Origin: Candidatus Altiarchaeota archaeon
Lineage (GTDB): Archaea > Altiarchaeota > Altiarchaeia > IMC4 > SCGC-AAA252-I15
NCBI GenBank assembly: GCA_043813075.1
Contig: JBDRLL010000010.1
Location: forward strand, 64,001 to 128,000
Length of the DNA: 64,000 nt
Direction: 5' to 3'
Shown here: piece by piece, positions 942 to 35,568 of the stretch
Numbering within the stretch: position 1 is the first letter of the stretch
How the letters are laid out: each line of letters opens with the position of its first letter
Made by a program: the position numbers and the translations under genes
The notes under the pieces: model-generated
The model's database searches: none
Seen by the model: the letters and a program-made list of their open reading frames with translations, nothing else
Told to the model about the DNA's origin: nothing

Positions 942-1087
942 GATAAACCCACCATAACAACTAAAATATCACACCCAATATTTAATAGCAAGCCAACATG
1001 AAAACAAACCAGCCGGGGCGTTCATAATCCCGCCCACAAAAGGATATGGCTTCTGCTGTTATGACAAAATACTGTGGTGAAGTGCAT

Positions 1088-1135
1088 GAGCCCCCGTAGG
1101 GGGCTCTATTCGCTGCGCGTGTCCACGGAGCGAGC
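1088..1135. repeat. tRNA-downstream two-hairpin element, copy 1
   Basis: GAGCCCCC-GTA-GGGGGCTC hairpin followed by ATTCGCTGCGCGTGTCCACGGAGCGAGC (1108-1135), which is 25/28 identical to 35045-35072. Confidence 0.8.
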
Positions 1136-1137
1136 CC

Positions 1138-1224
1138 TGGTTACGGACCCGCTGGGACACTCAAAATCGCTTTGCGATTTTGGTGCGTCGGCAAGCTTTG
1201 CTTGCCGAGCGTTCGAACCCAGGT
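1138..1224 (-). repeat. Duplicated 3' end of tRNA-Arg, interrupted in the T-loop by a 54-nt double-hairpin insert
   Basis: 1138-1157 equals 1227-1246 and 1212-1224 equals 1247-1259. The insert (1158-1211) contains CAAAATCGC-TTT-GCGATTTTG and TCGGCAAGC-TTT-GCTTGCCGA. Confidence 0.9.
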
Positions 1225-1232
1225 TTTGGTTA

Positions 1233-1392
1233 CGGACCCGCTGGGATTCGAACCCAGGTCCGGGGATCTCTCCGAATCAATTTATCGACTTCACCGGGCC
1301 ATCGAGGCTTATGCCGAAGATGGCCCATTTGATGAATCTTTTTTAAAGATTCGCCGAAGTCCCCTAGGATGTCCAGACTACCCTACGGGCCC
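1233..1392 (-). tRNA. tRNA-Arg(TCG) with an 86-nt intron at canonical position 37/38 (intron 1268-1353)
   Basis: Acceptor stem GGGCCCG/CGGGTCC, anticodon arm GGGGA-CT-TCG-G^...^A-TCCCC, T-arm CTGGG-TTCGAAT-CCCAG. BHB motif: central helix CTTC/GGAG, bulges GG^C and AG^A, outer helix GAATC/GATTC. Confidence 0.92.
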
Positions 1393-33899: not shown

Positions 33900-34232
33900 A
33901 TGCCCAAGCCTGTTCCACCCACGTTGAGGGAGCGCAACCGCTACCTGGTTTTTGAAGCCATATCCGACTCCCAGTTCGACAGGAAGGCTGTCGTCAACTC
34001 GCTGTGGAACTCCATGCTGCGCCTCTACGGGGAGGTGGGGGCTTCTGAGACCTCCATATGGATTATGGACTGGGATGAGGGCAAGTCCAGGGGCATAGTG
34101 AAGGTGAACCACAAAGCCATTGACAGGGCCAGGGCTGCGATAGGCCTGGTGGGGGATATCGGCGGTAAAAGCGTCATATTGCGGGTTATAACGGTCTCAG
34201 GCACCCTCAAGAAGGCAAGAGAAAACCTGTAA
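33900..34232 (+). CDS. rnp2: Ribonuclease P protein component 2 (Pop5/Rpp14)
   Basis: PPTLRERNRYLVFE...LYGE.G...GIVKV...VSGTLKKAR. Confidence 0.95.
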   Translation: MPKPVPPTLRERNRYLVFEAISDSQFDRKAVVNSLWNSMLRLYGEVGASETSIWIMDWDEGKSRGIVKVNHKAIDRARAAIGLVGDIGGKSVILRVITVSGTLKKARENL

Positions 34233-34260: not shown

Positions 34261-34935
34261 CTATTTTAGGTATGTCTGGTTGCACTCAGCCTCCAAAGCC
34301 CCATCCGCTATGAGCATGCACAACTGGGGGTTTATGGAACCCTCCCCTATATGCTGCAGTATGCACTCATCCTTAAGGGACACGTTCCTTATGCCCAGAC
34401 ACTCCAACGGGTTGGATTTCTTGTCCCTCAGGTAGTTGAACACACACCTGTCCTTGGTCTGCTGGTCGAATATGAGCTTGCAGTAGTCTACCCTCTTCCA
34501 CCTGAAGGCCATCATCCAGTAGCAGTAGTCCTTCTCCTCCAGCACGTCCACGCCATTGCAGAACTCCACCCGCTCCTCCACATGGGCCTTGCACTTGAGC
34601 ATAATGTTCCTCGAGGAAATCATGTCGCACAACCCAGAATCACCAGCCCTGCCGGCCAGTTCGTAGATGCAGTCATCCCTCTGCCCCACTTCAGCGAGCA
34701 TGGTGCAGTTACCAGTATCCACAAGAACAGGAGCCAGAGTCGTTTCGACATCAAAGTCCTCCAGCGTCGTGCTGGTCGAGCCAACGACAGGCGCCAGGGT
34801 TGTGGACGTGGACACGGTGGTCTCCGCAGGGCCGAGAGTGGTTGTGACCTGAACTTCATACTGCACAGTCTCCGTGCCGCCCATGCAGCCTGCCGCCAAC
34901 ACAACCAAAACCAAAAACAATACGGAATACTTCAC
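34261..34935 (-). CDS. Predicted lipoprotein with Cys-pair repeats
   Basis: LAAGC lipobox, Thr-rich linker, and about five C-x2-[ILV]-x5-[KR]D-x-C units. Confidence 0.8.
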   Translation of the reverse strand: MKYSVLFLVLVVLAAGCMGGTETVQYEVQVTTTLGPAETTVSTSTTLAPVVGSTSTTLEDFDVETTLAPVLVDTGNCTMLAEVGQRDDCIYELAGRAGDSGLCDMISSRNIMLKCKAHVEERVEFCNGVDVLEEKDYCYWMMAFRWKRVDYCKLIFDQQTKDRCVFNYLRDKKSNPLECLGIRNVSLKDECILQHIGEGSINPQLCMLIADGALEAECNQTYLK

Positions 34936-35024
34936 GACTATTGATTAAAGAAAACGGATTAAAAAGCACGCTAATATGGTGGGGCATCGTGTTTCAGGAT
35001 TTACCTATTTTTGGGCTGGTGTAT

Positions 35025-35072
35025 GCGGGGTCGAAGACCCCGCCATTCGCTCCGCGTGTGAACGGAGCGAGC
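35025..35072. repeat. tRNA-downstream two-hairpin element, copy 2
   Basis: GCGGGGTC-GAA-GACCCCGC followed by ATTCGCTCCGCGTGTGAACGGAGCGAGC. Same architecture as 1088-1135. Confidence 0.8.
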
Positions 35073-35079
35073 AGTTCAA

Positions 35080-35099
35080 TGGTCCCGTCGAGATTTGAA
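35080..35099 (-). repeat. 20-bp duplication of the tRNA-Ile 3' end (att-like)
   Basis: TGGTCCCGTCGAGATTTGAA is identical to 35311-35330. Confidence 0.9.
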
Positions 35100-35310
35100 T
35101 ATCAGAACCTACGGTTCCGATACCTCCCTGCCGACTTGCTGACGCAAGTCGGAGGCTTCGCTTGGTTCAGTTATTTCGTCAACATCATGCTGTAACCAAC
35201 CGACTCCAGTTCTTCTTTCTTTTAGTAAACGTTTCCAAATCCCCTTCGGGGATGGGCGCCAGAAAGCTCTGCTTTCTATGGGTCTTTCTTTCGTAAAGAA
35301 AGAAAAGGTT
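35100..35310. other. Hairpin-dense non-coding insert between tRNA-Ile and its duplicated 3' end
   Basis: Hairpins TATCAGAACC-TAC-GGTTCCGATA, CCGACTTGC-TGAC-GCAAGTCGG, ATCCCC-TTC-GGGGAT, AGAAAGC-TCT-GCTTTCT and TCTTTCTTT-CGT-AAAGAAAGA. Confidence 0.7.
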
Positions 35311-35385
35311 TGGTCCCGTCGAGATTTGAACTCGAGACCTTCCGATTATCAGTCGGACGCTCTAACCAACCTGAGCCACGGGACC
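35311..35385 (-). tRNA. tRNA-Ile(GAT)
   Basis: Acceptor GGTCCCG/CGGGACC-A, anticodon arm TCCGA-CT-GAT-AA-TCGGA, T-arm TCGAG-TTCAAAT-CTCGA. Confidence 0.97.
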
Positions 35386-35568
35386 GGATTATTCTGTTTG
35401 TCTGGTTTGTTTTTCTTCCCAAGGGGATTATCTTGGTGCATGTGCGTGCGACCGTAAGGTTGCACTCGCGGCACGCGTCAACTGAGTGAGCGGTTGATGG
35501 GATTCTATTATAATGATTATTATTAAAAAAGTGTTTTAACATGGTGTGTCTGGGGTGTTTAAGGTATG

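Follow-up and report, generated by a model that had tools for sequence, protein, structure and literature searches.

Hairpin-headed small insertion modules, probably mobile at the DNA level, beside tRNA genes of Altiarchaeota and one DPANN order

Prokaryotic elements of the MITE, REP and PATE types are short, non-coding, structured, multi-copy and non-autonomous, and both IS200/IS605 and REP elements insert without duplicating their target.

Among archaeal tRNA introns, related sequences have been described at different tRNA positions in Thermoproteales, where the consulted passages of a review call the mechanism of transposition unknown (PMC4090602). The transposed bulge-helix-bulge (BHB) introns of Fujishima et al. 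(2010), as reviewed in those passages, are near-identical short sequences found in different tRNA genes and at different positions, and the spread of introns in Thermoproteales is thought there to have occurred at the DNA level (PMC4090602). Integrase-mediated intron gain was proposed by Sugahara (2012), with tRNA-Thr of Caldiarchaeum as a model, in the part of that paper considered here (PMC3293823). For the tRNA introns of Asgard archaea, a 2026 preprint put copying, mobile elements and reverse transcription to the test and concluded that the route ‘remains open’ (10.64898/2026.10.13.758758). Short direct repeats in the vicinity of introns from every class, four archaeal introns among them, are reported in PMC11782384. 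Full-text searches of the openly accessible literature listed no description of the sequence head reported below or of free-standing copies with target duplications.

In this work, a window of 64,000 nt (the whole stretch of DNA analyzed) from an Altiarchaeota metagenome-assembled genome (MAG; G000, 1.8 Mb in 41 contigs, 89% complete) was examined around two similar structured sequences, s1 and s2. Taken together, the evidence makes it probable that s1 and s2 are copies of a conserved head shared by a family of small non-coding modules, and that these modules insert and move at the DNA level in Altiarchaeota and one DPANN order.

Structure and distribution of the conserved head

On the plus strand, positions 1082-1135 read GTGCAT, an 8-bp stem (GAGCCCCC/GGGGGCTC) with a 3-nt loop and a 28-nt block, and positions 35019-35072 read GTGTAT, an 8-bp GC stem (GCGGGGTC/GACCCCGC), again with a 3-nt loop, and a 28-nt block. 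These stretches were as the original prediction had described them, with GC stems that differ in sequence but stay paired and a core identical at 25 of 28 positions; a degenerate version of the 28-mer, allowing up to three mismatches, had 2 matches in the window against 0.00 expected (100 dinucleotide shuffles, none matching). Each sequence folds as two hairpins on either strand, with z-scores of -3.7 (s1) and -5.0 (s2) for the minus-strand RNA.

A relaxed search of G000 turned up additional copies, each beside fragments of other genes. A covariance model (R1) built from 26 copies recovered the further copies that had been anticipated: 12 matches in G000 at E ≤ 1e-4, in addition to a weak third copy in the window, and 82 matches in 77 collected loci, the head being present in 21 of the 49 genomes of the order. 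No R1 match came from the phylum's two other families (f8 and f9; 12 genomes). In a sample of 61 genomes from a DPANN order, six had matches (10 in total, five of them in a single genome), including copies in a tRNA-Leu 37/38 intron and at a tRNA-Val 3' end, and a MAG of this order, labelled ‘Candidatus Iainarchaeum’, contained one repeat-flanked copy. All of these genomes are MAGs, and for some copies a mis-binned contig is possible. A contig scan with the pattern AACGG-N6-7-CCGTTCACAC gave, among the matches listed, three useful archaeal loci and otherwise mostly chance bacterial ones, because only 15 bases were specified. Consistent with the expectation of an element outside the described RNA families, the Rfam gathering scan of the window reported tRNA-Ile only, a scan at E ≤ 1 of eight loci with copies returned nothing on the module, and no Rfam 15 family matched it.

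Read on the tRNA strand (minus in the window), all copies share AACGG, 6-7 nt, CCGTTCACAC and a short complement of the six bases, a unit referred to hereafter as A' or the head. The element starts with a 7-bp hairpin, P1 (X-N-ACGG, a 6-7-nt loop and CCGT-N'-X'), after which come ACAC, a second, shorter helix (P2), a sequence-variable hairpin and (A/C)(G/U)CAC; the 3' end is not fixed. The core of the module measures 53-65 nt, and longer forms add hairpins, a promoter-like tail or a cargo ORF. Across 82 copies (81 distinct), P1 (N-ACGG/CCGT-N') was paired in 89.6% of cells, its inner four pairs being fixed in sequence and its outer two covarying. Pair 1-18, the end pair of P1 in the model, was AU in 48 copies, CG in 22 and GC in 4, and the three inner pairs of P2 showed 8, 6 and 10 double changes. 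None of 500 shuffles reached the observed covariation score, part of which can come from shared descent among related copies, in agreement with the proposal of a repeated structured motif with covariation. The base preceding the model start (X) had its Watson-Crick partner immediately after CCGT-N' in 77 of 79 copies, with all four pair types represented, whereas the next four outward offsets paired in just 11-28 of 79; the element therefore begins with a 7-bp hairpin. Since a 4-nt linker across a 7-bp stem looks too short for a pseudoknot, P1 and P2 may be alternative helices. After the head, a stem of at least 6 bp was found in 44 of 80 copies versus 335 of 1600 shuffled controls, very diverse in sequence and often followed by GCAC, and other subfamilies carried other tails.

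These boundaries modify the first description of s1 and s2. The stretches 1082-1135 and 35019-35072 are indeed present, but towards the tRNA the element extends 5 nt beyond them, to the start of P1 at 1140 and 35077. There, X at 1140 forms a C:G pair with X' at 1123 in s1, and X at 35077 pairs with 35060 in s2; each copy has one internal P1 mismatch. Their R1 scores in the genome search were 37.2 bits (E 2.8e-7) and 45.4 bits (E 9.4e-10), respectively. The hairpin TCGCTCCG/CGGAGCGA, originally regarded as the conserved part, dominates the predicted folds of s1 and s2 because of their P1 mismatches, but in the family as a whole it was paired in 68.6% of cells compared with 66.5% in shuffles (81 distinct copies), far from the value for P1; it is a subfamily feature. 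The suggested likeness to a Val anticodon loop did not survive, as UUCACAC consists of the 3' strand of P1 plus the conserved ACAC and does not form a 7-nt loop closed by a conserved stem. The pairing analysis of P1 likewise led us to reject a tRNA-like or anticodon-loop element.

Target sites and the insertion signature

For 61 of the 82 copies, ARAGORN called a tRNA gene no more than ~320 nt away (58 copies in sense and 3 in antisense orientation), upholding the predicted tRNA linkage; tRNA genes with such flanks occupy ~1.5% of the genome, as estimated from 34-36 genes. Within or near tRNA genes, copies had landed in the D-loop, in the anticodon loop (37/38), in the T-loop, and either at the discriminator or within a few nucleotides downstream of it. 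The 5' part of the tRNA was duplicated by 22 copies, mostly ending after nt 12-13 or 18-20 (D-arm), while in 13 copies X coincided with the discriminator (6) or lay 1-3 nt downstream (6) or 1 nt upstream (1) of it. Among the 21 copies without a called tRNA, two were located at 5S rRNA gene ends (L203 in G015:C129 and L213 in G020:C304; one in sense, one in antisense with a 45-nt duplication) and one near the 3' end of a 23S rRNA gene (L202 in G018:C161); the junction between trpE and trpG was a further target. Duplication of a tRNA 3' end, proposed from the window, thus holds for s1 and s2 but is not a rule of the family, given the copies in D-loops and anticodon loops, at 5S and 23S ends and at trpE/trpG.

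The sequence upstream of the element was repeated 52-311 nt downstream in 40 of 80 copies. In 20 of these 40 the identity ended exactly before X; in nine it extended 1-4 bases past X, about what chance sharing gives, and in 11 it fell a few bases short. Duplications were 11-63 nt long and the enclosed elements 53-289 nt, the shortest (53-65 nt) consisting of the head, hairpin 2 and GCAC only, with 3' ends that were not conserved. Therefore, one boundary of the element is precise and the other is not. Between 0 and 3 bases were shared at the junctions, and both ends of the duplication lay in unpaired parts of the tRNA cloverleaf. Because the target is directly duplicated, the interrupted gene stays whole.

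The trpE/trpG junction allowed filled and empty sites to be compared. In 11 family genomes trpE directly precedes trpG; six of the junctions were empty, with an uninterrupted ATGA overlap, and five were filled, at three nucleotides and with different tails. In G000, G012 and G002 the copy sat at the same nucleotide, yet the duplication lengths differed and the G012 copy had a different tail, and in G020 and G018 copies were found at two other nucleotides (that of G018 was recognized by eye). These differences in site, duplication and tail indicate a hot spot with repeated insertions rather than one inherited insertion.

Some copies were associated with a cargo ORF starting 8-12 nt after the module. 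After tRNA-Met in G001, an element of ~640 nt comprised the head, an ORF of 166 aa encoding a multi-pass membrane protein, the tail GGGAGGTATCGGAACCGTAGGTTCTGA and a 14-nt tRNA-end repeat. A similar element after tRNA-Ser in G008 had a 175-aa membrane ORF, a GAACCG..CGGTTC hairpin and a 21-nt repeat. The two ORFs were unrelated to each other (BLASTP E = 17), and neither matched a Pfam family.

The head was also found inside introns. Four copies in four genomes (L020, L154, L166 and L207) were placed at nt 2 of canonical 37/38 introns, without target duplication; the hosts were tRNA-Arg(GCG) and a tRNA called Arg(cct) by ARAGORN, which we read as Trp(CCA). In two G000 introns inspected by eye (tRNA-Arg(GCG) on contig C22 and, on C11, the tRNA called Arg(cct) and read as Trp(CCA)), GAAC(G) of the head pairs with (C)GTTC near the 3' end of the intron and is followed by four bases complementary to anticodon-loop positions 32-35, so that the junctions read as helix, 3-nt bulge, 4 bp and 3-nt bulge, an arrangement suggestive of a bulge-helix-bulge. 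Inspection by eye of repeat-flanked copies revealed no such motif. About two thirds of the ARAGORN tRNA calls in G000 were intron-bearing, many with introns of 49-171 nt, and modules were shared between introns and flanks.

At the genome level, a copy of at least 11 nt of its own end was present within 450 nt of 15 of the 34 tRNA genes of G000. Terminal duplications comprised the 5' end upstream in 8 of 34 genes and the 3' end downstream in 8 of 34, tRNA-Val(UAC) having both. The module accounts for the stray end copies beside close to half of the G000 tRNA genes, though not all of them have an A' head, and such copies can mislead the annotation of tRNAs and islands in MAGs.

Organization of the window copies

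The features identified around s1 and s2 are listed in Table 1. Both displaced tRNA 3' ends, whose presence beside the two copies had been predicted, proved to be exact 20-nt repeats. Positions 1138-1157 are identical to 1227-1246, span from the end of the T-loop to 6 nt past the discriminator and share bases with the first 3 nt of s1; positions 35080-35099 are identical to 35311-35330. The parent tRNA gene lies 70 nt (s1) or 211 nt (s2) beyond each displaced copy. All three module copies of the window lie outside the mature tRNA sequence, unlike archaeal BHB introns. The third scored 21.2 bits with R1 (E 0.018 genome-wide, 0.0014 among loci) and sits between a TATA-like box and the tRNA-Ile gene.

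Table 1. Module copies, tRNA genes and associated inserts in the 64,000-nt window.
Feature	Positions	Strand	Basis
Module copy s1 (head P1/P2, variable hairpin 2, ATGCAC)	1082..1140	-	Sequence, model R1, fold
Displaced 20-nt copy of tRNA-Arg 3' end	1138..1157	-	BLAST self-hits and exact pattern search
54-nt two-hairpin insert in T-loop of dead tRNA 3' copy	1158..1211	-	Sequence, comparison with L219 and L167
Duplicated T-arm 5' half (ttcgaacccagg) and 4-nt spacer, completing the dead 3' fragment	1212..1227	-	Sequence
Intron-containing tRNA gene	1233..1392	-	ARAGORN with introns
Module copy s2	35019..35077	-	Sequence, model R1, pairing, fold
Displaced 20-nt copy of tRNA-Ile 3' end (T-loop to discriminator)	35080..35099	-	BLAST self-hits and exact search
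211-nt insert without A' head	35100..35310	-	Sequence; tail shared with relatives
tRNA-Ile(GAU), no intron	35311..35385	-	ARAGORN; Rfam RF00005, 70.3 bits
Third, degenerate module copy in tRNA-Ile 5' leader	35435..35496	-	R1 match (35454-35495) and sequence

For the intron-containing gene next to s1 the most likely identity is tRNA-Arg(UCG), its 86-nt intron lying at 37/38 or close by; ARAGORN returned SeC(tca) by default, and the anticodon call moves with 1-nt changes in the placement of the intron. A sequence in this intron, GGGCCATCTTCGG..CCTCGATGGCCC (~1290-1330), reappears as the tail of A'-headed elements. Between the gene and its displaced end, the 54-nt insert is composed of CG, a hairpin, ACGCACC, a second hairpin (AAAATCGC/GCGATTTT) and GAGTG, and the same architecture was found in the relatives G018 and G008, also inside the T-loop of dead tRNA 3' copies. 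At locus L219 (G018:C93), after tRNA-Val, the trailer, T-arm 5' half, 54-nt T-loop insert and remaining tRNA 3' end form two tandem units of ~101 nt each ahead of an A' copy.

At s2, the 211-nt insert opens on its tRNA side with a hairpin (CTTTCTTTC/GAAAGAAAG; ~35283-35307) and closes with the tail module GGGAGGTATCGGAACCGTAGGTTCTGA (35100-35128), a tail that also closes A'-headed elements in relatives (L007 and L163; family genomes). A stretch of 98 nt by tRNA-Ile (35214-35311) is 91% identical to G000:C32:8276-8373 beside tRNA-Cys and represents a flank module without A' head. On the same strand as s2 and starting 84 nt after it, an ORF of 224 aa (34261-34935) with a signal/lipoprotein-like N-terminus is convergent with the RNase P Rpp14/Pop5 gene (33900-34232); no family was found for it in a Pfam search, and it could be cargo or an ordinary neighbour.

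On the far side of s1 and s2, a genome-wide search for a third tRNA 3'-end copy (up to four mismatches) found no repeat, and within 1.5 kb of them no 10-mer repeat was detected. DNA of the same-genus genome is too divergent to show empty s1 and s2 sites; the loci retrieved were those of tRNA-Met and tRNA-Phe. Given the lack of a far-side repeat, it is by analogy with the other copies that s1 and s2 are taken to have arisen by insertion. They would be older insertions at tRNA 3' ends, displaced outward by the later arrival of a second module that duplicated the same end once more. The head would now follow a displaced fragment instead of the gene because the later module pushed the old junction outward.

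Candidate mechanisms and relation to known systems

The module behaves like a non-autonomous mobile element, as originally proposed, and DNA-level mobile insertion is the probable explanation of its copies. The companion proposal of a link to a GIY-YIG, HUH/Y1 or tyrosine recombinase gene found no counterpart in G000. In this 89%-complete genome there was no match to the reverse transcriptase family RVT_1 (PF00078), to Y1_Tnp (PF01797) or to the TnpB-type domain (PF07282), and no GIY-YIG domain was found; Phage_integrase (PF00589) had no match in G000 (12 copies) or in G008 (7 copies). Even a XerA-type recombinase thus went undetected in the G000 assembly. G012 has two tyrosine recombinase genes (L241 and L243; 396 and 405 aa) that terminate 22 nt away from tRNA-Asp and tRNA-Glu, on the 3' side of these tRNAs, a layout suggestive of ordinary integrated elements; further recombinase genes of this type occur in G001, G002 and G015. 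No head was present between the tRNA-adjacent G012 integrase genes and their tRNAs or in the examined island-side flank, and the search around the integrase genes of the relatives returned only the known 5'-side copy at G012 tRNA-Glu.

Those recombinase genes bear on an alternative in which the copies are scars of integrase-mediated integration, left by viruses or plasmids with tRNA-carrying attP sites that were later deleted down to attL/attR and an arm (the head). Partial duplication of tRNA 5' or 3' parts is the classical att signature in the section of Sugahara (2012) considered here (PMC3293823), and tRNA-end direct repeats are present at both window sites (20 nt) and in 40 of 80 copies; for a recombinase, the other hallmark of an att site, there was no match in the two copy-rich genomes G000 and G008, and the tRNA-adjacent integrases of G012 have no head between them and the tRNA or in the examined island-side flank. 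Moreover, whole elements of just 53-65 nt keep both repeats intact, which would require many deletions that each stopped precisely at attR; the targets and the lengths of the repeats vary greatly; and the same head opens 37/38 introns that lack repeats, all of which makes this reading unlikely. It is also quite unlikely that the head is a functional RNA signal of the tRNA transcript (processing, stabilizing or protein-binding) kept by selection and not a parasite. Such a role would agree with the tRNA sense of 58 of the 61 tRNA-linked copies, with a covarying structure conserved across two phyla, with cargo ORFs that begin 8-12 nt after the module as after a 5' UTR, and with the TATA-like tails that end the long forms immediately 5' of the restored tRNA. 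However, copies are antisense to the trp mRNA at all five filled junctions, and others are antisense to one 5S rRNA gene, one 23S rRNA gene and three tRNA genes, which also weakens the original suggestion of a small RNA co-transcribed with tRNAs; presence is patchy (21 of 49 genomes) and the tRNAs hit differ between genomes; copies decay, as seen in the P1 mismatches of s1 and s2 and the 21 bits of the third window copy; and the flanking target duplications are an insertion signature.

An end hairpin with sequence-specific inner pairs, one precise and one variable end, and duplication lengths that vary as in target-primed reverse transcription would also be shared by a miniature of a single-stranded DNA transposon (a PATE of IS200/IS605, or REP/RAYT) or of a retroelement using target-primed reverse transcription. 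This origin is nevertheless very improbable, as IS200/IS605 and REP make no target duplication, G000 encodes no detected Y1 transposase, TnpB-type domain or reverse transcriptase, and the A-rich tails are most simply duplicated tRNA leaders. Taken singly, an IS200/IS605 miniature or REP/RAYT element was ruled against by duplications of 11-63 nt together with zero matches to PF01797 and PF07282, and a SINE-like target-primed retroelement, for which variable duplications are present, by zero PF00078 matches in G000. For a classical MITE, which like a REP-like element had been among the kinds first proposed, the variable duplication (11-63 nt) and the unconserved 3' end argue against the assignment; as for terminal inverted repeats, the head and the tail hairpins GAACCG..CGGTTC showed a loose likeness only. 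The variable duplications likewise speak against the REP-like assignment.

Returning to DNA-level insertion, how a module would move can be outlined tentatively. It is conceivable that the module spreads by copy-and-paste through a single-stranded intermediate, of RNA or DNA, whose 5' end is the foot of the hairpin; the precise start at the hairpin foot, the loose 3' end, the 0-3 shared bases and the variable duplications would fit such a route. A trans-acting factor would recognize the head, and the intermediate would be joined at staggered breaks or by template switching. A more far-reaching reading, which we regard as possible though doubtful, is that the head marks a mobile unit that gives birth to BHB introns, with host-encoded joining (template switching or a structure-specific joining enzyme) into unpaired sites of stable RNA genes, buffered by the target duplication. 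At 37/38, the first bases of the head would re-pair with the 3' GTTC to form the outer helix of the bulge-helix-bulge. Duplication-buffered insertion would then be a route by which archaeal tRNA introns originate.

The same module is found in both states: it heads canonical introns, and it also forms free insertions that look recent, with exactly defined boundaries, target duplications, hot spots and both occupied and unoccupied sites. It may thus show how archaeal introns arrive. If true, this would be the first concrete and testable route of arrival, common to two phyla. Defined sequences and junctions are now available for work with read data and in vitro.

Compared with described systems, the module resembles MITE, REP and PATE-type elements in being short, non-coding, structured, multi-copy and non-autonomous. 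It differs from them in having no fixed-length duplication, no clear terminal inverted repeat and one precise end only, in that no partner transposase was found, and in its strong targeting of stable RNA genes. With att duplications (those of the SSV1 and pNOB8 types and the Caldiarchaeum model) it shares a tRNA-end repeat that flanks the insert, a restored gene and a displaced fragment left behind; in contrast, the inserts measure 53-290 nt (~640 nt with cargo) with no integrase inside them or in G000, both the length of the repeat and the target are highly variable, and some targets are not tRNA genes. The likeness to the BHB introns of Thermoproteales is that the module also heads canonical introns (in tRNA-Trp, tRNA-Arg and DPANN tRNA-Leu). 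For the Thermoproteales introns, the passages of the review considered here mention no free-standing copies or target duplications (PMC4090602), whereas most copies of the present module are free-standing beside tRNA, rRNA and protein genes, with an 11-63 nt duplication, a precise hairpin 5' end and sometimes a cargo ORF, in hosts belonging to Altiarchaeota and DPANN.
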